A program made the translations under genes and the position numbers. A DNA stretch of 64,000 nucleotides from positions 12,596-76,595 of the forward strand of contig CAZMHM010000004.1 of the NCBI GenBank assembly GCA_964566135.1, in the 5' to 3' direction. The notes beneath the pieces are model-generated. The model did not search any database. It saw nothing but the letters and a program-made list of their open reading frames with translations, and had not been told where the DNA came from. This DNA comes from an uncultured Candidatus Saccharibacteria bacterium. Lineage in GTDB: Bacteria > Patescibacteriota > Saccharimonadia > Saccharimonadales > CAIOMD01. Numbering within the stretch: position 1 is the first letter of the stretch; every line of letters starts with the position of its first letter. Below, piece after piece: positions 4,188 through 49,517 of the stretch.

Positions 4188-4654
4188 GCTTGCAAACCTT
4201 CTGCTAGATATTGGTAGGTAGCCGGAATAGTGATGGTAATTTCGCGCTCGGATTCACCAACTTGTAAAAAGGTAATTAGTACGTGCTCTTGTGGCAAAAC
4301 ATCAGCAACAATATCGCCCCACTCCACTACTATGACGACATTTGGGTCACTAATAATTTCTTGTAGCTCATGGCTAATAATTCCTGGTTCGGGTAAACGA
4401 TAAAAGTCAAAATGATGAACAGTAAAGTTTGGTGCGTTATACACCTTAGAAATGGTAAATGTTGGGCTCGCAACATCATCACCACTGCCTGCGCCCTCGG
4501 CAAATCCACGCGTAAAGGTAGTTTTACCGCCACCAAGGTCACTCTTAAGCTCAATCAGTTCGCCACCTTTACAGTTGGCGCCGAGAATTCTGCCGAGCTG
4601 TTCGGTAATTTCTGAGCTGGTAGAGTTTATTCGCAATGTCAAACCGGTACTCAT
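4184..4654 (-). CDS. tsaE: tRNA t6A biosynthesis ATPase TsaE
   Basis: SDLGGGKTTFTRGF P-loop about 38 aa from MSTGLTL, and WGD near the C-terminus. I chose ATG 4654, which overlaps the upstream gene's 3' end by 86 nt. Confidence 0.8.
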   Translation of the reverse strand: MSTGLTLRINSTSSEITEQLGRILGANCKGGELIELKSDLGGGKTTFTRGFAEGAGSGDDVASPTFTISKVYNAPNFTVHHFDFYRLPEPGIISHELQEIISDPNVVIVVEWGDIVADVLPQEHVLITFLQVGESEREITITIPATYQYLAEGLQA

Positions 4655-8876: not shown

Positions 8877-10709
8877 ATGAGTCCAAAGCATATGCGTATA
8901 TCAGACAAACTAGTCGAAGAACTGCTTACCAAAACCAAGAAAGTTACTCCCGAACAGCTAACCGCCCTTAAGGAGCAAGAGCAGAACGAGAAGAAGCCAC
9001 TACAGGACGTAGTGATTGCTGCTAATGTCGTAAGCGAGAAAGACTTGACGCAAGCATTTGCCGAAGCAATCGATATTCCGTTTGTCGAAATAAATGTTAA
9101 AGAAATTCCTCGTGAAATTTTGCACCTTATCCCCGAACGCATCGCTCGTCAGTACGATGTTGTTGCCTACGGCGCCGAGGAAGACGGTACCAAGTTACTT
9201 GCCATGGAAGATCCTGACGATATTCAGGCAATTAGCTTTTTGCAAAAACAACTTGGTAACGAGCTAAAGATTTTTATCGCAACCCGTACTAATATCTTGC
9301 AAGCTATCGACCAATACCGCGAAAACATTAGTAGTGAAATTACACAGGTTATATCAGCCGAAGAAGAGGCCCAGGGCCAAGAAGGCGACGAATTTAATGA
9401 AGAGGATTTAGCAGAGGACTCACCAATTGCACAAACCGTAAACCTCATTATCGAGGGTGGTATTAAATCTGGTGCGTCAGATATCCATATAGAACCCCGC
9501 GAGAATTACGTATCAATTCGGTATCGCATCGACGGTATTCTGCGCGAAGTAAACAAACTGCCTAAAAAAGTTCATGGGGCGCTTGTATCACGTATCAAGA
9601 TTCTATCGAATCTCAAGATAGACGAACGCCGTGCGCCACAAGATGGGCGCTTTAAGATTGGTATTAACAGCCTTGTCTATGCGCTGCGTGTGTCAACGCT
9701 ACCTATCACAGAGGGCGAAAAAGTGGTTATGCGTATCCTAAATGAATCATCAAAAGCCCTTACGCTCGAAGAACTTGGCTACTGGGGCCACTCGCTTCAG
9801 ACAATTAACCACGCAATCGCACAACCACACGGCATGACACTAGTTACCGGGCCAACGGGTTCTGGTAAGTCTACAAGCTTGTTTAGCGTTTTGAGTCTGC
9901 TTAATAACCCAAGTGTTAATATCTCCACAGTTGAAGATCCAGTTGAGTATAAGATTCCTGGTGCGAATCAAACGCAGGTAAACCCACAAGCGGGTATGAC
10001 ATTTGCTGCTGGTTTGCGTGCCCTTTTGCGCCAAGATCCAAACATTATTATGGTTGGTGAGATTCGCGATGGAGAAACCGCTGGGCTTGGTGTACAGGCG
10101 GCCCTAACAGGTCACCTTGTGTTCGCAACCCTTCACACAAACAACGCTGCAACATGTTTACCCCGTTTACTCGATATGGGCATTGAACCATTCCTTATTG
10201 CCAGTACCGTGCGAGCGGTCGTTGGCCAACGCCTTGTGCGACGATTGTGTCCGAATTGCCGCGAACCATATACACCTGACGCAACTATTGTTAAGAAAAT
10301 TGCGGATGCTTTTGGGATTAAAGATGGTTCGTTTATGAAATATGTCCATGATTTAGAGGCGCAAGCACTCGAGGGTGGTATCGGAGCCTCAACCTTACCA
10401 GATAAAGATCCGAAATCAACAGGTGTTTTATCCACTACCGACGCAAAGATTCAAAAACTTTGGAAAGCAAAAGAAGGCGGCTGTGACGAATGTAACCATA
10501 TTGGCTATCGTGGTCGCATGGGTATTTACGAAGTACTCGGTAACTCAACAGAAGTACAGAAACTTATTGTCAGTAACGCGACGAGTGACGTTATTCAGGC
10601 TCAGGCAGTGAAAGAAGGCATGGTTATCATGCAAATGGATGGGTTCATTAAGGCACTTCGTGGCCAAACAACAATCGAGGAAATTTTGCGCGTAACCGCA
10701 GAAGAATAA
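8877..10709 (+). CDS. pilB: Type IV pilus assembly ATPase PilB (GspE family)
   Basis: GspE N-terminal domain, GPTGSGKST Walker A, the Asp/His boxes and a CxxC...CxxC tetracysteine (CPNC...CDEC). Confidence 0.93.
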   Translation: MSPKHMRISDKLVEELLTKTKKVTPEQLTALKEQEQNEKKPLQDVVIAANVVSEKDLTQAFAEAIDIPFVEINVKEIPREILHLIPERIARQYDVVAYGAEEDGTKLLAMEDPDDIQAISFLQKQLGNELKIFIATRTNILQAIDQYRENISSEITQVISAEEEAQGQEGDEFNEEDLAEDSPIAQTVNLIIEGGIKSGASDIHIEPRENYVSIRYRIDGILREVNKLPKKVHGALVSRIKILSNLKIDERRAPQDGRFKIGINSLVYALRVSTLPITEGEKVVMRILNESSKALTLEELGYWGHSLQTINHAIAQPHGMTLVTGPTGSGKSTSLFSVLSLLNNPSVNISTVEDPVEYKIPGANQTQVNPQAGMTFAAGLRALLRQDPNIIMVGEIRDGETAGLGVQAALTGHLVFATLHTNNAATCLPRLLDMGIEPFLIASTVRAVVGQRLVRRLCPNCREPYTPDATIVKKIADAFGIKDGSFMKYVHDLEAQALEGGIGASTLPDKDPKSTGVLSTTDAKIQKLWKAKEGGCDECNHIGYRGRMGIYEVLGNSTEVQKLIVSNATSDVIQAQAVKEGMVIMQMDGFIKALRGQTTIEEILRVTAEE

Positions 10710-10711
10710 AT

Positions 10712-11923
10712 ATGTTATTTACGTATACAGCCGTCACGAAAGAAGGGAAATCCGTATCGGGTAGTGTTGAAGCCAGCTCGAAAGAAGCGCTCATTGAAAC
10801 ATTACACAAACAAGGCTTACGCCCATTAGTTGTTAAGCAAGGTTCTACAAAAAAAGGCTTTAGTATTGGTAAGCCTAAGGTAAAACTTAAAGACCTCGTT
10901 ATGTTTACGCGCCAGTTATCAACTATGATTTCAGCAGGCGTTCCTCTTACCCGTTCACTGTCTACCCTCGAGCAGCAGACGGATAACAAGTATTTCAAAA
11001 CAGTTATTGGCGGTATTACAAAAGATGTTGAAGGCGGTATGACAATTGGCGATTCGCTTGCAAAATATCCGAATGTTTTTTCTGAAGTTTACGTCAACAT
11101 GGTAAAGGCCGGAGAAGCTGGCGGTATCTTGGATGAAATCCTAAAACGACTTGCTTCGCAGGTCGAGCAAGAATCAAGCATGCGCAAAAAGATTAAGAGC
11201 GCCATGACCTATCCCGTCGTTATTGGCACAATCGCAGTTATCGCATTCTTTGGCTTGATGATTTTTGTGATGCCAAAAATGGGCAAAATTATCAAAGACC
11301 TCGGTGGCCCTAATGCTAAATTGCCAATCTATTCTCAATTCTTATTAGATTTGAGCGGGTATATGCAAAAATATGCTGTCTTTATTATTATCGGCATGGC
11401 AGTAGCGATATTCTTTACAAGACGCTATATCAAAACACCTAAGGGAAAATATAAGTTCCATGCCTTGATGCTACGTACGCCTATTATTAAAGATATTCTT
11501 ATTAAGATTGCTGTTGCACGCTTTGCTCGTACTTTTGCATCACTTATGTCAGCAGGTGTAAGCGTGCTTGATGCGTTACAGGTTACCGGTGGCGCGATTG
11601 GTAATAAAGTACTCGAAAAAGAACTACAAGAAGCATCAAAAGAGGTTAAGAACGGTAAGCCTCTATCCGAGCCTATGGCAGCAAGTAAATATTTCCCTCC
11701 GATTGTTGGCCAAATGCTTGCCGTTGGTGAAGAAACCGGACAAGTTGATACTATCCTTATTAAGATTGCAGACTTTTACGAAGAAGAAGTAACAACGGTT
11801 ATTGATGGCCTTAGCTCTATTATTGAGCCGGTAATGATTATTGTTATTGGCGCAATGGTTGGTGTTATCGCCGCTAGTGTTATGGGACCAATCTCATCAC
11901 TCAGTAAAAATATCGGTGGATAA
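10712..11923 (+). CDS. pilC: Type IV pilus platform protein PilC (GspF family)
   Basis: Two GspF repeats with 3 TM segments. It starts 3 nt after pilB. Confidence 0.92.
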   Translation: MLFTYTAVTKEGKSVSGSVEASSKEALIETLHKQGLRPLVVKQGSTKKGFSIGKPKVKLKDLVMFTRQLSTMISAGVPLTRSLSTLEQQTDNKYFKTVIGGITKDVEGGMTIGDSLAKYPNVFSEVYVNMVKAGEAGGILDEILKRLASQVEQESSMRKKIKSAMTYPVVIGTIAVIAFFGLMIFVMPKMGKIIKDLGGPNAKLPIYSQFLLDLSGYMQKYAVFIIIGMAVAIFFTRRYIKTPKGKYKFHALMLRTPIIKDILIKIAVARFARTFASLMSAGVSVLDALQVTGGAIGNKVLEKELQEASKEVKNGKPLSEPMAASKYFPPIVGQMLAVGEETGQVDTILIKIADFYEEEVTTVIDGLSSIIEPVMIIVIGAMVGVIAASVMGPISSLSKNIGG

Positions 11924-22449: not shown

Positions 22450-23883
22450 CTATACCTCGTTCAATTTAGCTCTACTTTGTTCTATTGTAACAGATACGGA
22501 ACGTTTTTTGAGCCCCAAAAGTACAATTGCAATAATCGCGTATAAAACCAATAAGCCAGCAATACTCACACTCGTGCGTGTTTGCGCGTTTGGCCACTTA
22601 GAAAACCATGTTGCTACGAGTATCATCACATCAAGTATGATGCGGGCTGGTAATGCAAACCAACCTGAGATCGCGGGCGCAATCATACCCGCTAGCCCGG
22701 CAAATAATGAAAATAACATAGCAAACGGAACCATAGGTACAACAATAATATTTGCCAAAAAACCTACCAGCGAAATACGGCCAAATATCAGCATAATAAA
22801 TGGCAGTGTCATAATTTGAGCAGCAAAGCTTTCTATTGCAATTGACCCAACCAATGGAACTTTTCTGATACCAAACAATCTCAGTGTTACGAGTGGTGCT
22901 ACAATCAAGACTCCAAAGAAGGCTAAGAACGATAAGTACCAGCCGATATCGCCCCAAATATAATATGGATTTGCAAATCCGGTTATTGCGGCTGCTAACA
23001 ATAGTAATACTAATGGCCGAAACCTTCTGCCAAAGTACCAGGCTACTAACCCAAGTCCTGCTACAATTGCCGCACGCACAATCGAAGGCGAAAACCCGGT
23101 GATAAGTAAAAAGAAATAGATTAGCGTTAGTGATAGTGCTAGCGTCTGAAACCGAGACAGGCGCTTAAGGCCTCTCTGTGTTGCGTTGGTAATTATAGTT
23201 AGGTTATAGCCCGAGACCGCAACGATATGAGTGAGGCCGACAGCCACGAGTATTGCCGTTAAGTCGGGTGGCAGTAGGCTTCGTTGTCCAACAAGTAATC
23301 CAATGCCAAAGCTAGCAGCAGGTTCGGGCAGTGCGGTTTCCATCCCAGCAATAAAGTTGCGCCTAAAATCCTCAAGCGGACTTTGCGCGCGTGCTATTAC
23401 ATTGATATCCGCATATGAGATACTCGCCTGTTTACTACCACGAGCCGGGTACAATTTTCCGTGCACAGTCACAATGTCGTGACGGTATACCATAGACTCG
23501 CCGTAACCGCGAATTCGCACCTTCCCGGGTAAACGATTACCATCAATAGTGGCAGCTTCGGCAGTAAATTCTAACTGAGATTTATCGGCATAAAAGCTGT
23601 CCTCGGTCGAGCGAGCTGTAAGAGTGACTGTCTTGTAAAAGTAGTCCTGATATTGTAGGTTTTGAACCTGCAGTACCCCACCCCTCCACCAGCCCAATAA
23701 CACGCCAGCTAGCAGCAGATAGAAGAGCAAAACGGCTCCGCGCTTAAACGCTAGCGGTGCGAGCGCAAGCACGAGCAACAACCACGCAATACTTAGCGGC
23801 TGGGTAAATTTTGCAATAAAAATACCGCCTAAAATGGCGGTTAAAAACACAATTATGTACGTTGTTCGGCGGAAGGGTTTCAT
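22450..23883 (-). CDS. comEC: ComEC/Rec2-family competence channel (competence domain only)
   Basis: Polytopic membrane protein with an N-terminal OB-like segment and the LTHIVAVSGYNL motif. No metallo-beta-lactamase domain. Confidence 0.85.
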   Translation of the reverse strand: MKPFRRTTYIIVFLTAILGGIFIAKFTQPLSIAWLLLVLALAPLAFKRGAVLLFYLLLAGVLLGWWRGGVLQVQNLQYQDYFYKTVTLTARSTEDSFYADKSQLEFTAEAATIDGNRLPGKVRIRGYGESMVYRHDIVTVHGKLYPARGSKQASISYADINVIARAQSPLEDFRRNFIAGMETALPEPAASFGIGLLVGQRSLLPPDLTAILVAVGLTHIVAVSGYNLTIITNATQRGLKRLSRFQTLALSLTLIYFFLLITGFSPSIVRAAIVAGLGLVAWYFGRRFRPLVLLLLAAAITGFANPYYIWGDIGWYLSFLAFFGVLIVAPLVTLRLFGIRKVPLVGSIAIESFAAQIMTLPFIMLIFGRISLVGFLANIIVVPMVPFAMLFSLFAGLAGMIAPAISGWFALPARIILDVMILVATWFSKWPNAQTRTSVSIAGLLVLYAIIAIVLLGLKKRSVSVTIEQSRAKLNEV

Positions 23884-25750: not shown

Positions 25751-26263
25751 TTAGTCTATGCGAATCGTATCCCCTTCTTTGACGCCCTGGGAGTCAAATG
25801 TGCCCTCTGGCACCTCTATAACATACCAACTCGGTTGGTTTGCATGATAGATTTCTGGATATTCGCCCGGTTTGGCGTTGTGCTTAATATAGACAACCTT
25901 GCCATCTTTAGTTAGCCAAGCAATATCTATAGGGAATCGCATTTGCACCATCCACATGCGCCAGTCACCGTTTTCCTCAAAGTCAAACAGCATACCCTTA
26001 TCGGCTCCGAGCGCGTCGCGTTGCGACAGACCTTTTTCACGTTTTGCGGGCGTATCGGCAATTTCGAGTGTAAACGCTTTTTTGCCGATTGTTACGTCTG
26101 TGAACCCAACGTTGTTAACATGCTGTCTAAACACAAAAAAACCAGCAACAAGTGCTATAACAATCGCAATCGATGCAACTATTAGTGCTAATGGGCCGCG
26201 CTGTTTACGCGCCGACTCGGTCTTTTTTGTTTCTTTGTTTGGCATTTCGCTCAATATATTCAA
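25751..26263 (-). CDS. DUF192-family protein with N-terminal membrane anchor
   Basis: GLSQRDALGADKGMLFDF...MWMVQMRFPIDIAW...YVIEVPEG pattern. The start is 26263 or 26245, and either overlaps the rimK 3' end out of frame by 41-59 nt. Confidence 0.7.
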   Translation of the reverse strand: MNILSEMPNKETKKTESARKQRGPLALIVASIAIVIALVAGFFVFRQHVNNVGFTDVTIGKKAFTLEIADTPAKREKGLSQRDALGADKGMLFDFEENGDWRMWMVQMRFPIDIAWLTKDGKVVYIKHNAKPGEYPEIYHANQPSWYVIEVPEGTFDSQGVKEGDTIRID

Positions 26264-27107
26264 TTATTTTTGTCGCAACATCCCGCTTGGTAATTTTTTC
26301 GATACCAAAACCTGGGCTCGAATTAACTTCTAGCACCAATGGTCCTCTGTCGCTACGCATCATATCGACGCCACAAATATGCAAGCCCATTGCACGGGCT
26401 GCTTTTAGTGCTGTCTTTTCTTCTTCGTCGGTTAATTTAACCGTCTTACCTTCACCACCTTGGTGTAAGTTTGACCTAAAGTCGTCATCGAGACTTTGGC
26501 GCTTGTAGCTCGCAACAACGCGTGAACCAACTACAAACGCCCTAATATCGGTACCGGCGGATTCTTTAACAAACTCTTGCACTAAAAAGTTTACACCTTC
26601 TACATAGAATGCTTGCATTACAGCTTGTGCAGCCTTGCGGGTTTCGGCTAGTACAACACCATTTCCATGCGTGCCACGTGCCACTTTAACAATAAGTGGC
26701 GCCCCACCGGCTTTTTCAACAACGTCGTCAAGATCAGCTGTTTCACGAGCGAACACTGTTTTTGGAATACCAACACCAGCTTTGGCTAATAATTGATAAC
26801 TGCGCAGTTTATCGCGAGAACGCACAATAGCCATTGAGCTAGCAGTTGTATAGACGCCTTGCATTTCAAACTGACGTACAACAGCAGTACCATACTTGGT
26901 ATAGCTCTGGGCAATACGTGGAATAATAGCGTCAAAGCCTACTAGCGGTTCACCCTTATAGTGCACAACCGGGGAATTCTTTTCGACTGTAATATAGCAC
27001 TTAGCGTAATTGATAATGCGTACTTCATGGCCACGCTCTTTAGCTACTTGCTTGAGCCGTTGCGTCGAGTAGTTTGCTCCACCCTTAGATAAGATAGCAA
27101 TTTTCAT
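26205..27107 (-). CDS. rimK: RimK-type alpha-L-glutamate ligase (ATP-grasp)
   Basis: Full-length pattern MKIAILS...PRI...SRDKLRSYQLLAKAGVGIP...PLIVKVARGTHGNGVVL...DIRAFVVG...GVDMMRS..GPLVLEVNSSPG. Confidence 0.9.
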   Translation of the reverse strand: MKIAILSKGGANYSTQRLKQVAKERGHEVRIINYAKCYITVEKNSPVVHYKGEPLVGFDAIIPRIAQSYTKYGTAVVRQFEMQGVYTTASSMAIVRSRDKLRSYQLLAKAGVGIPKTVFARETADLDDVVEKAGGAPLIVKVARGTHGNGVVLAETRKAAQAVMQAFYVEGVNFLVQEFVKESAGTDIRAFVVGSRVVASYKRQSLDDDFRSNLHQGGEGKTVKLTDEEEKTALKAARAMGLHICGVDMMRSDRGPLVLEVNSSPGFGIEKITKRDVATKIIEYIERNAKQRNKKDRVGA

Positions 27108-27598
27108 TATCTCCCATCCTCTTCATCGTTAGGGAAATCAATGCCATACTGCTTTTTTAAATCAATTCGATTGATGCTTGTTTCCGCAGTATCAACCAAG
27201 AAACGATTGTTAAGCATTTTACGGCCAAGTAAAATTGGATAAATTTTCTTTGACCTATCGGCAAGCGAAAACGTTGCAGAGAAGATTTTTGGGCCTAGTT
27301 TTACCCTAAGTTTGACTTCATATCTCTCTTCTCTGTGACCAAAAGAATTTGCTATCCAGACAGATTTAAAATCCTTAGTTTTAACCTCAGTAGCTAAGCT
27401 ACCACAGACAGGATGCCCACCAAGAAGTACAAACGATAGTTCTGAACCATCATCTGAAAGCACGATATTCGAAGCATGAACAGCCGACCGGTAGGCACCA
27501 GTGTCTACCTTGGCAGGGATGTCAGCAATTTGCTGCTCCATAAAATGTAGCAACTCTGCTCGGCCTACGATTACCTTGTGAAAATCTGTTCTTGCCAT
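27107..27598 (-). CDS. Retropepsin-like protease of the RimK-associated (DUF785, 'putative ATP-dependent zinc protease', RimB-type) family
   Basis: AKVDTGAYRSAVHA (D-T-G) and ILLGRKML motifs. TAATG overlap with rimK. Confidence 0.75.
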   Translation of the reverse strand: MARTDFHKVIVGRAELLHFMEQQIADIPAKVDTGAYRSAVHASNIVLSDDGSELSFVLLGGHPVCGSLATEVKTKDFKSVWIANSFGHREERYEVKLRVKLGPKIFSATFSLADRSKKIYPILLGRKMLNNRFLVDTAETSINRIDLKKQYGIDFPNDEEDGR

Positions 27599-27691
27599 TT
27601 CAAACCAATACTATCAAACTAATTATGGTTATTGTATTTGTTTTTTCTATTTAACTAGTATATTATATTACTAATTCGATTATTTGTCAAT

Positions 27692-28933
27692 ATGAAAACA
27701 GTCCTCATCGTCGGTGATAGCATGAAGCAGCTTAGGGATAAAATCCTCGAGTTAGGCTATGATTACGTACAATTGCGCGACATCAGAAAATGTAAAAATC
27801 CCGAAAAAGTACTAAAACGACGAGTAGTCTGCGATTTCTCCTCGAACGATACTATTGATGTTGCACTTAAGGAGCTAAAAAAACGTTATGTCGTTGATGG
27901 CATTATTAGCACCTACGAGAATTATATTTTGCAAGCCGCATATGTTGCCGAAATACTTGGGCTCCGTGGGATGCCAATTAGTGCTGCAGAGGCGTGCACC
28001 GATAAATACATTATGCGCGAGCTGTTTTCTAGTGCCCCTCGAAAGATTAGCCCTTCTTTTCAAGAGGTGCATTCTTTTGATGATATACAGGTTTTTATGC
28101 AAAACGCTAGCTACCCCGTCATACTTAAACCCGCAAACCTAGCAAAAAGCTTATTGGTCACCAAAAGCAGTACCGCAGAAGAGCTAAAAGCAAACTACGA
28201 AAAAACTGTATCTACAATAGATGGTATCTATAGAAAATATGCTCCTAACCGTACACCAAAAATTATAATTGAAGAATTCATGGAAGGACCTGTGCATTCG
28301 GTAGACGCATTTGTTGATGAGAATGGGACACCTCATGTACTAGAGAATGTTGTAGACTATCAAACTGGCTATGACATTGGCTATGATGATAATTTTCACT
28401 ATAGCCGCCTTTTACCAAGTAAGCTTTCTGCAGAAGAAATCGCCGAAATCAGAGAAGTTGCCGCACTAGGCTGCCGGGCACTTGGCATGCAAAGTTCACC
28501 AGCACATGTAGAAATAATACGGACAGTTAATGGACCAATGATTGTTGAAATCGGTGCTCGCAATGGCGGTTATCGCGAACGAATGCATAGCATTGCGAAC
28601 GGCATTGATATTATCAAGAATGCGCTAGCTCTTAGTTTTGGCGAACCACTTGATTTAACACCAACTTGCAATGATTCTTGCGCAGTTCTAGAACTCTTTC
28701 CAAAGAACCCAGGAACATTTACTGGCGTATCGGGAGAGGCACAATTAAAAAATCTTTCGTCGCTTGTATACTTTGCCATCAAACAGCCTGTCGGGTCTTA
28801 TGTGGGTAAGTCTTCGGAAGGCTACAAGATGTGTGCAATTATCATCTTGCATAACGCTGATACGGCAGCGTTTGATCGTGACTTAGCGTTTGTTAACGAC
28901 AATGTTTTTATAGAGACATCAGATAATCAATAA
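27692..28933 (+). CDS. ATP-grasp enzyme of the L-amino-acid-ligase type (413 aa)
   Basis: A pre-ATP-grasp N-domain, then TDKYIMRELF...YPVILKPANLAKS...IIEEFMEGPVHSVDAF...AHVEIIRTVNGPMIVEIGARNGG. Confidence 0.75.
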   Translation: MKTVLIVGDSMKQLRDKILELGYDYVQLRDIRKCKNPEKVLKRRVVCDFSSNDTIDVALKELKKRYVVDGIISTYENYILQAAYVAEILGLRGMPISAAEACTDKYIMRELFSSAPRKISPSFQEVHSFDDIQVFMQNASYPVILKPANLAKSLLVTKSSTAEELKANYEKTVSTIDGIYRKYAPNRTPKIIIEEFMEGPVHSVDAFVDENGTPHVLENVVDYQTGYDIGYDDNFHYSRLLPSKLSAEEIAEIREVAALGCRALGMQSSPAHVEIIRTVNGPMIVEIGARNGGYRERMHSIANGIDIIKNALALSFGEPLDLTPTCNDSCAVLELFPKNPGTFTGVSGEAQLKNLSSLVYFAIKQPVGSYVGKSSEGYKMCAIIILHNADTAAFDRDLAFVNDNVFIETSDNQ

Positions 28934-29918
28934 AGACTTTTGTCACTCGAGACCCTTGATTGTTTGTTGGGTGCTCGTGGATATACAATGATGGACACTT
29001 GTTCACCTCATTGATCATGGGGGCCAATGACTCAATCGTACTATCTCGCTGAGGAATGTCAGATACAAGAATATCTACTCCACAAAGTGGCAGACGGCTT
29101 GTTCTGGCAACTTTTTCTGCCAATGTAATGAGCCAATCAGGGGTTTGATCAGTGATATTATCTGTCTCGCCGCCAGAGCCATAATTTGCCTTTCCAAGCA
29201 CCAATATTTCTTCGCCATCATGCGGGATTCTATCTGGATTATCGGTTATTGCAACGTATTCTAGTGCCTCGATAACATCAATAGTCGCTAGCCGGGCTAC
29301 ATATCTTTCGCCACGATCCGGTTTATCATTGGATTGCTCGATAAGCGCTTTAATTGTATCTTTGCCATTGCCAAATACTCGTGCAGGAATCCTTAATACT
29401 GTAGCGACAAACTTATAATTGATGCATAAAATTCTTAGGTCGACAGCGCCACTATACATCTGTTGCAGTAGGGCTACTCTGCCGGAAATGCTTGCAGCAT
29501 ATGCTCTTTCAAGCGCAGCAGTTAGCGTAGTTTTATCAGTAATGCCTACAGTTATGCCATCGCCATGCGCACCATCGAGAGGTTTAGTAACGATTTCAGT
29601 TGACCACGCTAGTGCCTCGTCTAGTAAATCGTTTTCTATATCTTTACGAACAAGGAGTGTCGCCAGCACTGGTAGCCCCGCATCACGCATAACTTTATAC
29701 GTTGCATACTTATTGTCTGCTTGCATTGCCGCAGCAAACGTTGTGCCAGGAGGAGTCGAGCTGTAGATATCAACAGGGCCGTTATCTCTATGAATAGTAA
29801 TAAGTGCACTACCGGTTACTGGCACCGTAACCTTTAGGTTACGGCTTAAGGCTTCGGTACATATCAAGCGATTTGTCTGCCGAAAGCTATCAAGATTATC
29901 TTTTGTAACTTCGACCAT
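28908..29918 (-). CDS. Stand-alone ATP-grasp protein resembling the G domain of cyanophycin synthetase CphA
   Basis: KPLDGAHGDGIT, DLRILCINYKFVATVLRIPARVFGNGKDTIKALIEQSN, ANYGSGGETDNITD, GVDILVSDI and INEVNKCPSL match remembered CphA G-domain blocks (KPLDGNHGRGIT, RVPAHVIGDGK.TI..LIE, ANLSTGG, GIDVV..DI, EVNAAPG). Confidence 0.75.
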   Translation of the reverse strand: MVEVTKDNLDSFRQTNRLICTEALSRNLKVTVPVTGSALITIHRDNGPVDIYSSTPPGTTFAAAMQADNKYATYKVMRDAGLPVLATLLVRKDIENDLLDEALAWSTEIVTKPLDGAHGDGITVGITDKTTLTAALERAYAASISGRVALLQQMYSGAVDLRILCINYKFVATVLRIPARVFGNGKDTIKALIEQSNDKPDRGERYVARLATIDVIEALEYVAITDNPDRIPHDGEEILVLGKANYGSGGETDNITDQTPDWLITLAEKVARTSRLPLCGVDILVSDIPQRDSTIESLAPMINEVNKCPSLYIHEHPTNNQGSRVTKVFIDYLMSL

Positions 29919-30817
29919 TATTTCGTCTTTGAGACTAAATAGTCGTTTAGAACCGAAAGTTTTGCGGGCACATTGCTACCCGTACTAAGCTGAGGCATGT
30001 TGTTTGCTTCTAAGAAGTAGTGTTTTCCATCTCTTTTATCAACAACCATATCAACACCACCAACTTCTCTGCGTAACTCACGACTAATCGTTACTGCTTC
30101 GTCTACCATAACCTTGGATAAATCTTCGACGGGCACAACAACACCCGACCCGCCCTTAGAAGTGTTATTTAGGTGACTGCCTTCTTCGCCCTTGCGATGT
30201 ATTGCAAGCTTAACCGTACCGTCTAAAATAATTAACCTGTAATCGCCGTCATTTTCGATAAACGTTTGCACCACAAATTGCTGATCGGTGTTATCTGCGA
30301 TAATCTGTTTGATTTCTTCGGGACTTTTGGCAAGATAATTGTGATTACCCCGAGAAGCAGCTACGGCTTTTACAATTAATGGAAATGTATGGTTTGATGC
30401 CCAATTTGCAACTGCATCACTATTGTTTGTGACGATAAATGGAATAGTCTGAATACCCGCAAGACCAGCTATAACATACTGGCTGATTTTAGTGCGAGAA
30501 CGCGTGTACAAGGCTTCTTGATTTGCGTGAGGTATCCCGTAATATTCAGCATAACGCGCTACAGATAAAGCAGTATCCTCGAGTAGCTTTGTTTTAAACC
30601 AACCAAATTGAAATATCGCATCAAAATTGCTTAAATCAACATTATCACCAGTAGTAATACTAAGTTTTGTATCATAGCTAATAATTAAATCTTCATAGTC
30701 ACAGGCAACGTATGTTACGTCTGCAGACTCAAAATCCTTCATGCCGGCTTTCATTGTTTGTGATGTATCGTAGTCGATTCGATCATCGCGACGACATAGT
30801 AATAGTATTTGCTTCAT
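29918..30817 (-). CDS. Second RimK/GshB-like ATP-grasp ligase
   Basis: PLIVKAVAASRGNHNYL, FVVQTFIENDGDYRLIIL, GGVDMVVDKRDGKHYFLEANNMPQ. I start at MKQILLL (30817). TAATG overlap with the CphA-like gene. Confidence 0.7.
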   Translation of the reverse strand: MKQILLLCRRDDRIDYDTSQTMKAGMKDFESADVTYVACDYEDLIISYDTKLSITTGDNVDLSNFDAIFQFGWFKTKLLEDTALSVARYAEYYGIPHANQEALYTRSRTKISQYVIAGLAGIQTIPFIVTNNSDAVANWASNHTFPLIVKAVAASRGNHNYLAKSPEEIKQIIADNTDQQFVVQTFIENDGDYRLIILDGTVKLAIHRKGEEGSHLNNTSKGGSGVVVPVEDLSKVMVDEAVTISRELRREVGGVDMVVDKRDGKHYFLEANNMPQLSTGSNVPAKLSVLNDYLVSKTK

Positions 30818-30882
30818 GGAAATTAGCTTATCATAATCTGTTAGTGCTTGCAATATTTATCTTTTTATGTTATTATGCTGTT

Positions 30883-31617
30883 ATGAATATCATCGCAATT
30901 GGCGGTGGCGAAAAAGAAAAAGCCATTAGTCAGGCATTAGCAGCGGCAGATAACCAGAATGTTTTATTAATTCCCTCCGCATGCTCGACGGAAACATCTT
31001 ATAGCAAAAAAGTTGGTTTGCTGGTTGAATATTTCCATAAATTTGGCATCCCTGGTGTACAAGTGTTGCATGGCTATGACGAAACGCCTTCTCGGGCACA
31101 AATAGAAGATATGTTTGGCGAAAGTGGCATGGCGTATGTTATTGGTGGTAACACACCTTATATGTTGGATACTATCAAAAACCACGGTACGGATGTCGAA
31201 ATAGCAAACGCCACTCGGAACGGCATGGTACTCGCAGGTACAAGCGCCGGCGCAATTCTCCCGTTTAGGCACGGCCAAGTAAACCCAGCCACTAAACCAG
31301 CTTTGCAAGAATGGGAATTTGAATATCGTGAGGGGCTTGGCATTGTCGATGCCACTGTTGGCGTTCATGCCGGTAAAAAAGATGCTGTTATTGGCGGTTT
31401 TCGCGAAAAAACAAGAGGTGAGTACCTAGAGGAAACGGTTGGTTCGATCTCTGATACGGCACTCGCGATAGATGAAGGGGCTGCGGTTTCAGTGACCGAA
31501 AGTGGACTTAGCGTTATCACATCTAGTCCCGATGCTCGTGTTCGAATACTACAAAAAGGCAAAAAAAATACCACCCTTGGTGATGGTGATACTTTTAGCG
31601 ATATTAAAGCCCTTTAG
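30883..31617 (+). CDS. Peptidase S51 family (cyanophycinase / dipeptidase E type)
   Basis: MNIIAIGGGEK, VIGGNTPYML and LAGTSAGAI (Ser nucleophile motif). I chose ATG 30883 rather than the track's 30712 extension, which overlaps the divergent gene. Confidence 0.8.
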   Translation: MNIIAIGGGEKEKAISQALAAADNQNVLLIPSACSTETSYSKKVGLLVEYFHKFGIPGVQVLHGYDETPSRAQIEDMFGESGMAYVIGGNTPYMLDTIKNHGTDVEIANATRNGMVLAGTSAGAILPFRHGQVNPATKPALQEWEFEYREGLGIVDATVGVHAGKKDAVIGGFREKTRGEYLEETVGSISDTALAIDEGAAVSVTESGLSVITSSPDARVRILQKGKKNTTLGDGDTFSDIKAL

Positions 31618-31724
31618 CGGTTGGCTTTTAGCACACGCAAAAAGACAAAACCAATCATAAACAAAAGGACCGCTAAAATTAGGACAATCATAGTAATAAA
31701 GCCGTTTTGATTTTGCCGGTTCAT
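31614..31724 (-). CDS. Candidate 36-aa single-TM small protein
   Basis: Manual translation gives MNRQNQNGFITMIVLILAVLLFMIGFVFLRVLKANR. AAGGA lies 6 nt upstream. Too short for the ORF track. Confidence 0.3.
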   Translation of the reverse strand: MNRQNQNGFITMIVLILAVLLFMIGFVFLRVLKANR

Positions 31725-31765
31725 GCTTATCCTTATTTTGCAGACAAAAGGCTGTTTTGTCTAGC

Positions 31766-32878
31766 CTAGCTAAACAAGCCGTGCTTGCCAGGCTCTTTTT
31801 GGAACTCTTGCAGTAGTTCTTTTTGGCGCTTGCTCAGTTTAGTTGGCGTTGCGACATCGAGCGTCACAATGTGTGCACCACGGCTTTCGCTTTTAAGATG
31901 TGGCACGCCATGACCAGATAGCTTAAAGTCACTGCCGCTTTGCGTACCGGCGGGTACTTTAATGGTTATTACGCCATCAACGGTATCTACTTTTAGCTCG
32001 CCACCAAGGGCAGCAGTTACCATATCAACCGATTCGTGGCTGAGTATTAGATCGCCTTCTCGGGTGAATTTTTTGTGCGATTTCACGCGTACATGTACAT
32101 ATAAATCACCTTTGGGGCCATTTAGTATGGCTTCGCCGTATTCGCGCAGGCGTATAGTTGCGCCATCATCAATACCGGCAGGTATTTTTAGGTCTACCTT
32201 TTGTTCTTTGCGCTTTACACCCTTACCGCCACAGACACTACAAGCCTTTTCGGGCTTTTTACCACTGCCGTGGCAGTCTGGGCAACGTTGCGCTTGCTGG
32301 ATGTTGCCTAAAATGGTGCGAGTTACGGTAACAACTTGACCGCTCCCCTTACAGGTCGGGCAGGTTACGAGCTCATGCCCAGGTTCGGCGCCATTACCTT
32401 TACAGTGTTCACATTCGGCTTCTACATTGAGTTTTAAGGTCTTTTCAACCCCGAATACAGCTTCTTCGAACGTTAAATCAATAACCGTTTCGATATCACG
32501 CCCACGACGGGCTTGTTGGCGTTGTTGACCACCACCAAAGAAGCTACCAAACATGTCGCCTAAATCACCAAAATCAAAATTAATGTTTTGGCCGTTAAAG
32601 TTAAAGCCCTGACCGGTAAAGTCGTAGGCTCCACCGCCGTAACCAGGGCCACCACCATTACCACCAACGCCAGCATGACCAAACTGATCGTAGCGCTTGC
32701 GCTTTTCGGTGTCTTTTAGTACCTCGTAGGCTTCGTTGATTTCTTTGAACTTAGATTCGTCACCACCTTCTTTATCTGGGTGATGGAGCACGGCTAATCG
32801 GCGGAACGCTTTTTTAATTTCGTCCGCCGATGCGTCTTTGGAGACGCCTAATACTTCGTAATAATCACGCTTTGCCAT
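31766..32878 (-). CDS. dnaJ: Chaperone DnaJ (Hsp40)
   Basis: J domain with HPD, a G/F region and four CxxCxGxG zinc-finger repeats. Confidence 0.97.
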   Translation of the reverse strand: MAKRDYYEVLGVSKDASADEIKKAFRRLAVLHHPDKEGGDESKFKEINEAYEVLKDTEKRKRYDQFGHAGVGGNGGGPGYGGGAYDFTGQGFNFNGQNINFDFGDLGDMFGSFFGGGQQRQQARRGRDIETVIDLTFEEAVFGVEKTLKLNVEAECEHCKGNGAEPGHELVTCPTCKGSGQVVTVTRTILGNIQQAQRCPDCHGSGKKPEKACSVCGGKGVKRKEQKVDLKIPAGIDDGATIRLREYGEAILNGPKGDLYVHVRVKSHKKFTREGDLILSHESVDMVTAALGGELKVDTVDGVITIKVPAGTQSGSDFKLSGHGVPHLKSESRGAHIVTLDVATPTKLSKRQKELLQEFQKEPGKHGLFS

Positions 32879-32880
32879 AA

Positions 32881-33414
32881 TTACTTATTTGGGCCTTGTT
32901 TGCTTAAGGTATCATACAAATTTTTTGGGGGCATACCTAATTGAATTTGGTCTACAATTAAAATTAACTCTTCGGTTTTGTCCTTAAGTGTCCGCACTGC
33001 TTCATCAATTTCATTTAATTGAGCTGCTTTGACCTTAAGGATTTTGTGCGCCACTTTATTTCTAGATTCGTTGATTGAATTTAAGAGAGCCAGGATATCT
33101 TCTCGCCTTGGAAACTCAAACTTCTTAAGTCCTTTTATACAGTTCCCAATATTCATATCTTTAATCGTCGTTTTTCTGATAGTAATTACACCATGATAAT
33201 ATTCACCGACCGCGGTTTCGGCATAATCTGTAATGTTCGCCAATAGATACTCAGCAAGATAATCCGCAACATTCATGTACAGTAATGCAGCAGATAGCTC
33301 ATAGGCCAGAGATTCATCTTCATCCTTCGCTACATTACTCTTCGATAAATGTTCTCTAGCAATAGCAAGGAAATGTCTTTTTACCTCTAACTCTTCATGA
33401 GAGAAAGCTGGCAT
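32881..33414 (-). CDS. Hypothetical helical protein with a HEPN-type R-N-x-x-A-H motif, inserted between dnaK and dnaJ
   Basis: SINESRNKVAHKIL fits Rx4-6H. There are 2-nt gaps to both the dnaK stop and the dnaJ start. Confidence 0.5.
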   Translation of the reverse strand: MPAFSHEELEVKRHFLAIAREHLSKSNVAKDEDESLAYELSAALLYMNVADYLAEYLLANITDYAETAVGEYYHGVITIRKTTIKDMNIGNCIKGLKKFEFPRREDILALLNSINESRNKVAHKILKVKAAQLNEIDEAVRTLKDKTEELILIVDQIQLGMPPKNLYDTLSKQGPNK

Positions 33415-33416
33415 TT

Positions 33417-35318
33417 CTATTTTTCTTTCTTGTCTTCTTCTTTTTCGTCGACGACTTCGCCTTCTACGGGACCGTCTTCTTTTTTGGTGTCGTCGGCTTT
33501 TGCTTCGCCTGCGTCAGCTGATTCGTACAGCTTGGCACCAATAGGCATAATCTTATCCGTTAAGTCTTTGGCGGCCTTTTCTAACTCTTCTTTATCAGTG
33601 CTTTCGGCTTTGCCTTGAGCTTCTTTAATAGCTTCGTCGAGCGTTTTCTTATCTTCTTCGCTGACCTTATCGCCATTATCATCCTTAAGCTTTTGAGCTT
33701 GGTAAATAGCGTTTTCTAAACCATTACGGGCATCAACTGCTTCGCGCTTCTTCTTGTCATCTTCGGCATGTGCTTCGGCTTCTTTTCGGGCTTTCTCTAC
33801 TTCGGCCTTATCAAGGTTACCACTGTTCTGGATCGTAATACTCTGCTCTTTGCCAGTGCCCTTATCTTTAGCAGTAACATTTAAGATACCGTTTGCATCG
33901 AGGTTAAAGGTAACTTCGATTTGTGGGATACCGCGTGGTGCTGGTGCGATACCATCGAGTAAGAATCGGCCCAAGCTCTTGTTGTCGCTAGCCATTTCGC
34001 GCTCGCCTTGCAATACATGGATTTCAACTTGTGGTTGATTATCGGCTGCTGTACTAAAGGTTTCGCTCTTGCTGGTAGGGATAGTTGTATTGCGCTCAAT
34101 AAGTTTGGTGCTAACACCGCCCATAGTCTCGATACCGAGGCTTAGTGGGGTTACATCAAGTAGTAACACGTCTTTCACGTCACCGGCTAGTACGCCGCCC
34201 TGTATGGCAGCACCAACAGCTACAACCTCGTCTGGGTTTACACCCTTCATAGGCTCTTTACCAAAGATCTTTTGGACCTTTTCTTGCACGCTTGGCATAC
34301 GAGTCATACCACCAACCAAAATGACTGCATCAATGTCACTAGCCTTTAGGCCAGCATCCTTTAATGCTTTTTCACATGGGATAGCAGTACGGTCGATTAA
34401 ATCGCCGACGAGGCTTTCTAGTTTAGCGCGGGTAAGCTTGGTTTCAAAGTGCACAGGACCATCGGCAGTCGCGGTTAAGAATGGCAAGTTAATAGTAACT
34501 TCGTTAGTAGTACTGAGCTCAATCTTAGCCTTTTCGCCTTCGTCACGTAAGCGCTGCATAGCAGCTTTATCGTCAGTTAGGTCTTGGCCGTTTTCTTTCT
34601 TAAATTCATCAATAAGGTAATTAACAATCACGCGGTCAAAGTCAGCACCACCTAAGTGTGTGTCACCATTGGTACTCTTTACTTCAAAGACACCATCGCC
34701 GAGTTCTAGGATTGATACGTCAAAGGTACCACCACCAAGGTCGTATACGGCAATCTTTTCGTCTTTGCCACCTTTATCAAGACCATACGCTAATGCAGCT
34801 GCGGTCGGTTCGTTGATAATACGCTTAACCTCTAGGCCAGCGATTTTACCAGCGTCTTTTGTGGCTTGCCGCTGTGCATCGTCAAAATATGCAGGTACGG
34901 TAATAACGGCCTCTGTTACGGGCTGACCCAAGAAAGCTACGGCGTCTGCCTTGAGCTTGCTAAGCACCATTGCGCTGAGTTCTTCTGGGCTGTATTCTTT
35001 GTCGCCCATCTTTACCTTTACGCCATCTTTGCTTTTGACCATTTCGTAGCCCATAAGCTTGATATCGCGCTGTACTTCTTTGTCTTCCCAGCGACGACCA
35101 ATAAGGCGCTTCATCTCATAAATAGTGTTTTTAGGGTTCGTCACACTTTGGCGACGAGCCAATTGGCCAACTAAACGTTCGCCACCTTTATTAAGCGCAA
35201 TCACACTTGGAGTGGTACGGTTACCCTCTGTATTAGCAATAATTTCTGGCTTGCCGCCTTCCATTACTGCCATTGCGCTGTTGGTTGTTCCTAAGTCGAT
35301 TCCTAAAATTTTACCCAT
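33417..35318 (-). CDS. dnaK: Chaperone DnaK (Hsp70)
   Basis: GIDLGTTNS and DLGGGTFD motifs, full-length similarity, acidic C-terminal tail. Confidence 0.98.
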
Positions 35319-48125: not shown

Positions 48126-49517
48126 ATGTTTAAAACAAAATACCGCAAACCAATCTCATACGATTTTGACCTCATAGTTATCGGCAGTGGCGCCGGCGGT
48201 GGCATTGCCGCACATTTAGCAGCAGCCGAGGGCAAAAAAGTTGGCATTATTGAAGCGAGCGCCATTGGTGGTAGTTGCCCTAATTTCAACTGCATACCCA
48301 CAAAAGCGCTACTGAAAGCTGCTGAAACATTAGAAACAGTGCAAAGTGCCAACCAATTTGGCATTCGCGCTAATGCTGTTAGTTATAATTTTCGCTCAAT
48401 CCAGGCATGGCGTGAAAAAGCAGTTACGGCGACTGGCGTGCATAGCGAGTTAACGGCGTTTAAGTCGGAAAATATTACCCTTATTAAAGGACATGCCCAT
48501 TTTGTTAACCCGTGGACGGTGAGCGTTGGCTTACGCCGATATACTGCGCATCAATTTCTCGTTGCAACTGGTAGCTCAGCCTTTATCCCAGACATTACGG
48601 GCCTCAAGGAAGCAGGATATATTACGTCCAAAGAAGCGGGCCAGCTCGTTAAATTGCCCAAGAGCATCTTTATCATTGGTGGTGGCGCAACCGCATACGA
48701 ATACGCTCAGATTTTCAGCGCTTTTGGCACCAGGGTTCACGTTGCAGAAAGTGGTTTACATCTACTGCCTAAAGAAGATCCTGAGGTAGGCGACGCTGCA
48801 GCGGCAGCGCTTGAAGCGCGAGGCGTACGTGTGCACAGTGCGACCCGAGTTGTACATATAGGTGGCGGCAAGGGGCGCAAAGTTATTACCTTTGAGCAAC
48901 ATGGCCAGGAACATAAAATAGCAGTTGAAGAAATCATGGTTGCATCTGGCAAAACTCCCAATGTGGACATCGGCCTCGAAAACGCCGGCGTACACGCGAG
49001 TGAAGATGGAGTACGAGTAAATAAGCGGATGCGCACCAATAAAAAACATATTTTTGCAGCCGGTGACGTTGTTGGTAAATACTTAACAACACACGCGGGT
49101 ATGCAAGAAGGTCGCATAGCCGTGCATAACATGTACCACCGCAAACAGGTAGATATGGATTACGCTGCTATCCCTCGAGTATTTTACGGAAAGCCAGAAG
49201 TCGCCGTCGTTGGCAAAACCGAACACGAACTTAAGCTAACTGGTGAACTGTACCAAACCTCTATCGCGCCAATTGGCATATTGGGTCGCGCTATAACAAG
49301 TAATTACACTGCGGGCTTTGTCAAAATAACGGCAACTGCCAGCGGTATCGTAGTGGGCGCAAGCATCGTTGCACCCCATGCAAGCGAGATGATTAGCGAG
49401 CTTTCTTTAGCCGTAAACAATCATTTGCACGCTTGTGATATTGCCAATACAATCCATCCTTTTCCAACCTGGGGCGAGGCAATCCGCGTCGCCGCCGGCA
49501 ACATTAAGTGTATCTAA
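48126..49517 (+). CDS. Class I pyridine-nucleotide disulfide oxidoreductase (dihydrolipoamide dehydrogenase/glutathione/mercuric reductase family)
   Basis: GSGAGG FAD site, redox-active CPNFNCIPTK, GGGATAYE NAD(P) site and the C-terminal dimerisation motif HPFPTWGE. Confidence 0.9.
   Translation: MFKTKYRKPISYDFDLIVIGSGAGGGIAAHLAAAEGKKVGIIEASAIGGSCPNFNCIPTKALLKAAETLETVQSANQFGIRANAVSYNFRSIQAWREKAVTATGVHSELTAFKSENITLIKGHAHFVNPWTVSVGLRRYTAHQFLVATGSSAFIPDITGLKEAGYITSKEAGQLVKLPKSIFIIGGGATAYEYAQIFSAFGTRVHVAESGLHLLPKEDPEVGDAAAAALEARGVRVHSATRVVHIGGGKGRKVITFEQHGQEHKIAVEEIMVASGKTPNVDIGLENAGVHASEDGVRVNKRMRTNKKHIFAAGDVVGKYLTTHAGMQEGRIAVHNMYHRKQVDMDYAAIPRVFYGKPEVAVVGKTEHELKLTGELYQTSIAPIGILGRAITSNYTAGFVKITATASGIVVGASIVAPHASEMISELSLAVNNHLHACDIANTIHPFPTWGEAIRVAAGNIKCI

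Follow-up and report, generated by a model that had tools for sequence, protein, structure and literature searches.

A free-standing relative of the cyanophycin synthetase G domain in a rimB-rimK gene island of Saccharibacteria

The DNA considered here, referred to as the window, is a 64,000-nucleotide stretch from an uncultured Candidatus Saccharibacteria bacterium (contig CAZMHM010000004.1 of assembly GCA_964566135.1, positions 12,596 to 76,595). An island bounded by dnaJ and a DUF192 gene encodes RimK, a RimB-like peptidase, an L-amino-acid ligase (LAL)-type enzyme, an ATP-grasp ligase related to cyanophycin synthetase (CphA), a divergent RimK-like ligase and an S51 peptidase (Table 1). The CphA relative, termed the G-like ligase below, is the subject of this report. 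CphA1 is built of three domains, N, G and M; the interval 28908..29918 encodes a complete G domain, with its core, lid and omega parts, standing alone.

Table 1. Coordinates of the island genes and of other features in the window.
Feature	Coordinates	Strand	Details
Stand-alone G-type ATP-grasp ligase (G-like ligase)	28908..29918	-	336 amino acids (aa); TIGR02068, phmmer against PDB, alignment, AlphaFold2 and Foldseek
Divergent RimK-family ATP-grasp ligase (RimK-like)	29918..30853	-	open reading frame (ORF) from TTG 30853; likely ATG 30817 (MKQILLL...)
LAL-type ATP-grasp ligase	27692..28933	+	413 aa; ATP-grasp_4 and LAL_C2
Peptidase S51 (cyanophycinase/PepE family, divergent)	30883..31617	+	ORF from 30712; likely start MNIIAIGGG at 30883
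RimB-like retropepsin aspartic peptidase	27107..27598	-	163 aa; DTGA catalytic motif; isoelectric point (pI) 8.65
Bona fide RimK (ribosomal protein S6–L-glutamate ligase)	26205..27107	-	349 bits vs 331-bit cut-off; pI 9.7
Sigma-70 consensus promoter TTGACA-17-TATAAT, 12/12	27662..27690	-	consensus match only
DUF192 protein, N-terminal hydrophobic segment	25751..26263	-	follows rimK in most related loci
Flavoprotein disulfide reductase	48126-49517	+	463 aa; below every curated NCBIfam cut-off

The ORF of the G-like ligase runs from ATG to stop exactly over the interval given in Table 1. The first base of its ATG is also the last base of the upstream gene's TAA stop (TAATG), and its 3' end overlaps a convergent gene, so the protein stops after 336 aa with no space left for additional domains. 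A preliminary description of this DNA had reported the same end point and the lack of the N and M domains, and both points stand: tblastn searches with four full-length CphA1 representatives against the whole window found neither domain in the 64 kb, and the queries aligned only through residues ~134-474, to the G-like ORF and weakly to rimK. The three-domain N-G-M architecture of CphA1 (about 850-900 aa) is not present in the 336-aa product, and no M-like gene is linked to it, the sole Mur ligase in the window being a MurC-like gene 29 kb away. All five sequence blocks from which the relationship was originally proposed (KPLDGAHGDGIT, RIPARVFGNGKDTIKALIEQSN..PDRG, ANYGSGGETDNITD, GVDILVSDI and INEVNKCPSL) are found in the translation.

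Profile searches place the protein closest to CphA, with NCBIfam scores below the curated cut-offs. The NCBIfam cyanophycin synthetase model TIGR02068 matches with E=5.9e-48, residues 18-334 covering positions 163-471 of the 862 in the model, and the score of 163.5 bits lies below the curated 850-bit cut-off. The next NCBIfam models are those of N-acetylglutaminylglutamine synthetase (Ngg; TIGR03103, E=1e-34) and the GshAB C-terminal half (E=1.6e-33), whose cut-offs are likewise missed (120 vs 569 bits and 116 vs 425 bits, respectively); the RimK model TIGR00768 gives 43.4 bits, below its cut-off of 143.4. In a phmmer search of the PDB, CphA1 comes first (7wac, 1.3e-30; 7lg5, 2.6e-28), followed by CphA2 (~5e-23) and GshAB (3.5e-17), and the Pfam families RimK and ATP-grasp_3 also match. 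The fold, together with the conserved Lys, Lys, Glu and Asn ligands of ATP and Mg, is that of the ATP-grasp carboxylate-amine ligase superfamily.

The AlphaFold2 model, built from a 67-sequence alignment, has a pLDDT of 96.7 and a pTM of 0.93 and spans the entire G domain, G-omega included. Its top Foldseek match is substrate-bound TeCphA1 (7wae; E=9e-30, template modelling (TM) score 0.84, 325 columns, 28% identity), so that the superposition on CphA proposed in the preliminary description bears out the suspected likeness; CphA2 ranks next, then GshF (TM 0.80), with RimK, LysX and Ddl at TM ~0.45-0.55. By sequence and by fold alike, CphA1 is the closest characterised relative, and the original assignment as a stand-alone homologue of the CphA G domain holds.

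To compare active sites, the residue roles described for TeCphA1 (PMC9427784) were mapped through an alignment of 174 homologous domains. In TeCphA1, K220, K261, H267, R309, R323, N394, E450 and N452 bind ATP or act in catalysis, R458 holds the alpha-carboxylate of the incoming Asp, S396 lines the Asp pocket, E215 binds the Arg side chain of the primer, and R323 and N394 also touch the Asp beta-carboxylate (PMC9427784). All eight ATP and catalytic positions are kept in the G-like ligase, in the same order as K70, K112, H118, R162, R176, N245, E304 and N306, and are invariant across its family. H118 lies in the P-loop, which reads LDGAHGD, and R162 is the equivalent of R309, a ligand of the acceptor carboxylate and the acyl-phosphate in CphA1. 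Since the ATP-binding and catalytic residues are all conserved, the G-like ligase should be catalytically active.

By contrast, the positions that set specificity in CphA1 are altered: S396 is replaced by G247, G456 by S310, R458 by Y312 and E215 by M65, and the large loop reads ANYGSGG in place of TANLSTGG. Among the relatives of the G-like ligase, the column equivalent to R458 holds Y, F, A, C, G or T, and the column equivalent to E215 is variable, non-acidic and not conserved within the family; the genuine CphA1 domains in the alignment have TAN[LI]S[TA]GG...PG[FLI]R without exception. The equivalents of R323 and N394 are invariant in essentially the whole sample, non-CphA members included, and thus give no sign of Asp specificity. 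The preliminary description had let its assignment hang on conservation of the substrate-binding residues of the G domain; the ATP and catalytic set is kept and R458, S396 and E215 are replaced, a partial refutation on its own terms. It is very unlikely that the G-like ligase makes cyanophycin or uses a (beta-Asp-Arg)n acceptor.

A minority of stand-alone G-like proteins retain a pocket of the CphA1 type (..LS.GG ... PG[LI]R, with the equivalent of Arg458 present), namely P0022, P0046, P0070, P0087, P0089, P0093, P0107, P0143, P0153 and P0163. Two of these, P0022 and P0046, sit inside the clade of the G-like ligase itself, and the gene for P0022 (locus L086) has two large unannotated genes (781 and 594 aa) and rimB-rimK downstream of it. 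Judged by their pockets, P0022, P0046 and the other members of this minority would be the strongest candidates for G-only enzymes that add Asp.

How widely such proteins occur was addressed with HMMER by scanning 1.84 billion cluster representatives exhaustively; 6227 of them matched at E<=1e-3. The best ~50 are stand-alone proteins of 330-340 aa; the next tier holds many stand-alone proteins of 310-330 aa with 30-37% identity, ranked over genuine CphA1 (862-888 aa, E~1e-29 to 1e-27). A further scan, in which each GTDB species was represented by one genome, gave 80 loci. Its stand-alone loci belong mainly to Saccharibacteria, Saccharimonadales and Nanosyncoccus or to unclassified Patescibacteria metagenome-assembled genomes (MAGs), the rest being one MAG labelled Woesebacteria and two unclassified 'uncultured bacterium' MAGs; identity to the G-like ligase is at most 44%. 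The window protein has the features that mark this group, i.e., a length of about 310-340 aa, a G domain only, an [AC]N.G.GG loop, an EVN..P[SA].. motif without the Arg, and a location near dnaJ and rimB-rimK, and it is a member of a Saccharibacteria-wide stand-alone family of about that length. Matches in Acidobacteria, considered as stand-alone proteins paired with S51 peptidases, were rejected: they are full-length CphA1 (850-900 aa, TANLSTGG...PGFR) with their own cyanophycinase. Being ordinary CphA1, they lend no support to a link between G-only ligases and S51 outside Saccharibacteria.

Relationships were examined in a neighbour-joining (NJ) tree of 81 domains (321 columns, 100 bootstraps), which is distance-based only and does not include GshF and Ngg sequences. 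A clade with support of 93/100 unites CphA1 and CphA2 with giant multi-domain relatives, and all stand-alone proteins fall outside it; branching among the stand-alone subclades is poorly resolved. Consequently, the G-like ligase is not a CphA that has lost domains and represents a separate free-standing lineage within the ATP-grasp subclade shared by the CphA G domain, the GshF C-terminal module and the ATP-grasp half of Ngg. The idea that it arose from a CphA by loss or splitting off of the N and M domains does not survive the exclusion of the stand-alone proteins from the 93/100 clade and the lack of a linked M-like gene; a truncated or split CphA was rejected on the same tree, the lack of N or M similarity in the window and the distance of the MurC-like gene. 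Lying outside the CphA1/CphA2 clade, the stand-alone proteins sample the free-standing lineage nearest the CphA G domain in this tree, and they are useful for tracing how the three-domain polymerase was assembled.

The giant relatives, of 1000-2400 aa, carry two or three G-like ATP-grasp stretches (P0050, P0051, P0055, P0057, P0069, P0104, P0142 and others). They mostly have a GSGG P-loop in place of the catalytic His and group with CphA1 and CphA2. One relative of these proteins, P0059 (799 aa), is named 'D-alanine-D-alanine ligase-like ATP-grasp enzyme/acylphosphatase'.

Gene neighbourhoods were counted over 69 distinct stand-alone loci, with a radius of 5 kb for RimK and RimB. RimK lies within this distance of the G-like gene in 52 loci and RimB in 50. 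Other partners are less constant: an orthologous LAL occurs in 20 loci and a second LAL-type ligase directly downstream, confirmed by Pfam, in 14, and a LAL-type gene is adjacent in 34/69; a RimK-like ligase is found in 17 and S51 in only 10. At least eight gene arrangements keep the rimB-rimK linkage, among them G>RimB>RimK (13 loci) and RimB>RimK>G (5 loci), and in 8 loci the G-like gene separates rimB from rimK and runs on the opposite strand. The gene order of the window recurs in contigs whose G-like homologues share only 36-43% identity. The neighbouring ATP-grasp genes that the preliminary description had pointed out are real; the strongest linkage, to rimB-rimK, was absent from it. A GNAT neighbour occurs in only two loci, L003 (6625-7107) and L050 (1171-1659), where a small GNAT acetyltransferase replaces S51 upstream of the RimK-like/G-like pair, an arrangement that recalls the GNAT and ATP-grasp fusion of Ngg. 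A GNAT partnership of the Ngg kind was rejected on this count.

The linkage extends to gene fusion. Proteins in which a G-like ligase is followed by a C-terminal retropepsin domain of the RimB/RloA type form five 50%-identity clusters in three subclades, and the D[TS]GA motif is kept in all. These fusions, of 455-512 aa, are represented by L088:3260-4750, L089:3167-4657 and L058:3426-4937 and by proteins P0088, P0099, P0105, P0111 and P0115. In L088 and L058 (a GTDB Saccharibacteria genome) the fusion stands in for a separate rimB, directly upstream of rimK. The literature searched yielded no description of a fusion between a CphA-G-like ligase and RimB, RimB-RimK hybrids being known. RimB is a retropepsin-like endopeptidase; it shortens the poly-Glu tails that RimK makes and also stimulates the synthesis of poly-alpha-Glu (PMC11957791), and peptidases of this type are specific for polyanionic tails (PMC11957791, PMC12239564).

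Within the island itself (Table 1), the neighbouring ATP-grasp genes are a RimK-like gene upstream, a LAL-type gene on the other strand and a true rimK; the S51 peptidase gene also flanks the G-like ligase. The TAA stop of the RimK-like gene overlaps the ATG of the G-like ligase, as it also does in L001 and L005, and from this TAATG stop/start overlap the two genes are predicted to be translationally coupled. The LAL-type gene, whose best PDB matches are the L-amino acid ligase BL00235 (5e-18) and BacD (7e-15), converges on the G-like ligase with a 26-bp 3' overlap (28908-28933) that leaves no intergenic space for terminators. The S51 peptidase is divergently transcribed and carries a GTSAGA nucleophile motif and one His that aligns with the cyanophycinase His; its match to the cyanophycinase model is weak (27.8 bits, cut-off 126.6). 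The sigma-70 consensus match lies in the 93-bp AT-rich divergent spacer between the LAL-type gene and rimB and faces rimB-rimK. The DUF192 protein is a possible member of the system.

A defence function was rejected, since PADLOC found no defence-system match for any of the six island proteins. The gene for the RimK substrate, rpsF, is not in the window. The flavoprotein disulfide reductase, which gives similar scores with the lipoamide dehydrogenase, MerA, glutathione reductase and mycothione reductase models, was considered in connection with a thiol peptide; it is unlinked, 19 kb away and under all NCBIfam cut-offs, and the idea was dropped. Ordinary genes elsewhere in the window (8877-11923, 22450-23883 and 4569-6059) encode a type IV pilus/type II secretion system ATPase and platform protein (T2SSE, T2SSF), the competence protein ComEC and a lamin-tail-domain protein. 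They fit the Saccharibacterial origin of the window that is indicated by its DnaK and RimK, which reach 91% and 90% identity to those of a Saccharibacteria MAG.

Every characterised relative phosphorylates a peptide or an N-blocked amino acid at its C-terminal alpha-carboxylate, and an amino acid or a dipeptide attacks through its alpha-amine: GshF joins gamma-Glu-Cys and Gly, Ngg joins N-acetyl-Gln and Gln, the CphA1 G domain joins the cyanophycin chain and Asp, and CphA2 joins the chain and beta-Asp-Arg. By analogy, the reading favoured here, at a probability of roughly one half, is that the G-like ligase is a C-terminus-extending peptide ligase in a Saccharibacteria-specific multi-ligase pathway tied to RimK/RimB and variable accessory ligases, in which RimB and the S51 peptidase are hydrolytic. 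Its footing is the observed homology, fold, residue conservation, separation from CphA, gene linkage and RimB fusion; the chemistry, the substrates and a functional link to RimK are what we infer. In such an enzyme, ATP-Mg would be clamped between the core and lid subdomains by K70, K112, E304 and N306, in the roles these residues have in relatives. A peptide or an N-blocked amino acid would be phosphorylated at its terminal alpha-carboxylate, and H118 and R162 would stabilise the acyl-phosphate. The G-omega large loop (N245-G250) would position the alpha-amino group of the amino acid or small peptide to be added, and its attack would lengthen the acceptor by one unit at the C-terminus. Its partners would be RimK and RimB and, in the window, also the coupled RimK-like ligase and the L-amino-acid ligase; acting together, the ligases would assemble a short peptide or a peptide tail, or reshape an existing one, and RimB and the S51 peptidase would carry out the hydrolysis.

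Several observations weigh against this reading. In six loci the G-like gene stands alone amid housekeeping genes, and in 11 loci it has a LAL-type ligase and no rimBK nearby, so the enzyme can probably act without RimK or RimB encoded in cis. RimK and RimB are basic (Table 1) and the G-like ligase is acidic (pI 5.1, net charge -10), which argues against a shared polyanionic poly-Glu substrate. The median identity in the same genomes is 34% for the G-like ligase vs 70% for RimK; evolution that much faster than that of RimK is not the pattern of a tightly co-adapted partner. The closest genome found tells a similar story: between L022 and window positions 26205-35318, identity is 91% for DnaK, 90% for RimK, 77% for RimB, 62% for LAL, 37% for the G-like ligase at the corresponding position and 28% for S51. 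The last two genes may have evolved very fast or been replaced by a paralogue or xenologue. Finally, the dnaK-dnaJ/rimBK neighbourhood is partly just conserved ancestral synteny of one phylum.

The same acidity and the 11 loci with LAL-type genes and no rimBK would suit a RimK-independent small-metabolite peptide synthetase of the GshF or Ngg kind, making a soluble di-, tri- or tetrapeptide that serves as osmolyte, thiol or signal; LAL and the RimK-like ligase would make the earlier bonds and S51 would recycle the product. The Ngg and GshAB scores of the G-like ligase (120 and 116 bits) are not far under that for CphA (163), the two nearly meet in P0076 (CphA 206 vs Ngg 191), the model has a TM of 0.80 to GshF, LAL-type dipeptide ligases are adjacent in half of the loci (34/69), and L003 and L050 do have a GNAT neighbour. 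Such a synthetase nonetheless leaves the 75% linkage to rimBK and the fusions to RimB, an endopeptidase of peptides and protein tails, without explanation; the GNAT neighbour is confined to two loci, and neither a GshA-like nor an amidotransferase partner is seen. This alternative is unlikely. The preliminary description had offered two others, a poly-Asp-like backbone and reliance on the neighbouring ATP-grasp genes for side-chain addition. In a split pathway to a cyanophycin-like storage polymer, the G-only enzyme would polymerise a LAL-made dipeptide by the logic of CphA2, or make a backbone that the neighbouring ligases decorate, with S51 as depolymerase. The premise of the preliminary description, that cyanophycin needs G and M activities in one polypeptide, is incomplete: CphA2 polymerises beta-Asp-Arg by its G domain alone (PMC10273328). 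That chemistry speaks for the scheme, as do the probable CphA2 representative P0063, which also lacks R458 (PAIH), the S51 peptidase and LAL-type ligase of the window and some relatives, and the conserved R323 and N394 equivalents. It becomes improbable once it is considered that S51 is found in only 10/69 loci and resembles cyanophycinase weakly (27.8 vs 126.6 bits), that the N domain for chain tethering is missing, that the primer-binding position (E215, or D212) is neither acidic nor conserved, that the G-like ligase lies outside the CphA clade, and that R323 and N394, invariant superfamily-wide in the sample, carry no Asp specificity signal.

A homopolymer synthetase would be an analogue of RimK, attaching poly-alpha-Asp (or Glu) to the C-terminus of a protein or producing free poly-Asp, with RimB or S51 trimming the product. 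In its favour, G-like genes are linked, and at times fused, to genes for RimB-type peptidases, which are specific for polyanionic tails (PMC11957791, PMC12239564), and the S51 members PepE and cyanophycinase cleave Asp-containing peptides. The CphA1 anchor for the Asp alpha-carboxylate, R458, is however a Tyr in the G-like ligase and variable in the family, the protein is strongly acidic, unlike RimK, and a true RimK is already encoded next door; the proposal is a long shot. Nothing specific supports either the poly-Asp or the split-pathway idea of the preliminary description. A functionless, pseudogenised or truncated cyanophycin synthetase, finally, is effectively refuted. One of the three CphA domains is covered, and relatives are named 'cyanophycin synthetase' at the Joint Genome Institute (JGI); yet the ORF is intact and of full length with every catalytic residue present, the fold is predicted with great confidence, dozens of orthologues of the same length persist across a phylum with reduced genomes, and the protein lies outside the CphA clade.

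Saccharibacteria are amino-acid-auxotrophic, host-dependent epibionts with genomes of about 1 Mb. A more speculative proposal, judged improbable, starts from this biology: LAL, the RimK-like ligase and the G-like ligase, alongside RimK, might form a peptide-banking assembly line that stores scavenged amino acids as a non-cyanophycin peptide or polymer, mobilised by RimB and S51; the G-like ligase would stand for the free-standing lineage that is kin to the CphA G domain's ancestor. If true, the assembly line would be a functional analogue of cyanophycin made by separate, ribosome-independent enzymes.

A free-standing ATP-grasp ligase is by itself unsurprising; what is new is the family, which spans a phylum, is uncharacterised although its enzyme class is known, and stands out by its architecture, pocket and gene linkage. 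In the literature searched, neither stand-alone G-like ligases nor RimK of Saccharibacteria are the subject of a paper. More noteworthy are the variable island of up to four ligases and two peptidases round rimB-rimK in reduced genomes, the RimB fusions and a pitfall of annotation. The island points to an unexplored peptide-ligation system in Saccharibacteria, for protein-tail remodelling or peptide synthesis. The pitfall lies in the names: relatives are called 'hypothetical protein', 'ATP-grasp domain-containing protein' or, at JGI, 'cyanophycin synthetase', and the extra relatives from a word-indexed protein search with a profile are all unnamed or 'hypothetical'. Automated 'cyanophycin synthetase' labels on this stand-alone family are unsafe. 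A recent preprint credits 5 of 21 Ca. Lutisaccharimonas MAGs with a cyanophycin synthetase and 13 with an S51 dipeptidase E, and deduces from those annotations that Saccharimonadia synthesise cyanophycin and use dipeptides derived from it (bioRxiv 10.64898/2026.09.16.751625). This pair may be the G-only ligase and S51 of island-type loci, and if the calls rest on the G-only family, the conclusion that Saccharimonadia synthesise cyanophycin is unsafe.

Four known systems frame the comparison. With the G domain of CphA1 (TeCphA1 7WAE, SuCphA1 7LG5) the G-like ligase shares the whole of G-core, G-lid and G-omega, the ATP residues, the P-loop His and the equivalents of R309, R323 and N394, and presumably, by analogy, the chemistry, in which an acyl-phosphate formed on the peptide C-terminus is attacked by an amine. 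It differs in lacking the N domain, which serves tethering and primer binding, and the Mur-ligase-like, Arg-adding M domain, in the replacement of S396, G456, R458 and E215, in its place outside the CphA clade, in its linkage to rimB-rimK instead of cyanophycinase and in its Saccharibacterial origin. CphA2 (7TA5, 8FXH) likewise has the G domain as its sole catalytic domain, and the probable CphA2 P0063, too, is without Arg at the R458 position. However, CphA2 keeps the N domain, a truncated inactive M domain (about 630 aa in all) and a primer-binding Asp (D212 in StCphA2), none of which the G-like ligase has, and it groups with CphA1 in the NJ tree, apart from the stand-alone proteins.

The C-terminal module of GshF and the ATP-grasp half of Ngg belong to the same G-omega-bearing ATP-grasp subclade (E about 1e-34; TM 0.80 for GshF), and the way they lengthen a very short peptide by one amino acid at its C-terminus is, by analogy, a plausible model for the G-like ligase. 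Unlike these modules, which are fused to a GshA-like or GNAT domain, the G-like ligase stands alone, and a GNAT neighbour is seen in 2/69 loci. The RimK/RimB system offers a parallel of another kind, a C-terminus-extending ATP-grasp ligase paired with a retropepsin-like peptidase, and the fusion of G-like ligase and RimB is a counterpart of the RimB-RimK hybrid. The G-like ligase is no RimK by score (43 vs 143 bits) or by fold (TM ~0.5), is acidic and has a G-omega; and whereas the protease is N-terminal to RimK in the published RimBK hybrid, it is C-terminal to the ligase in the G-like fusions.

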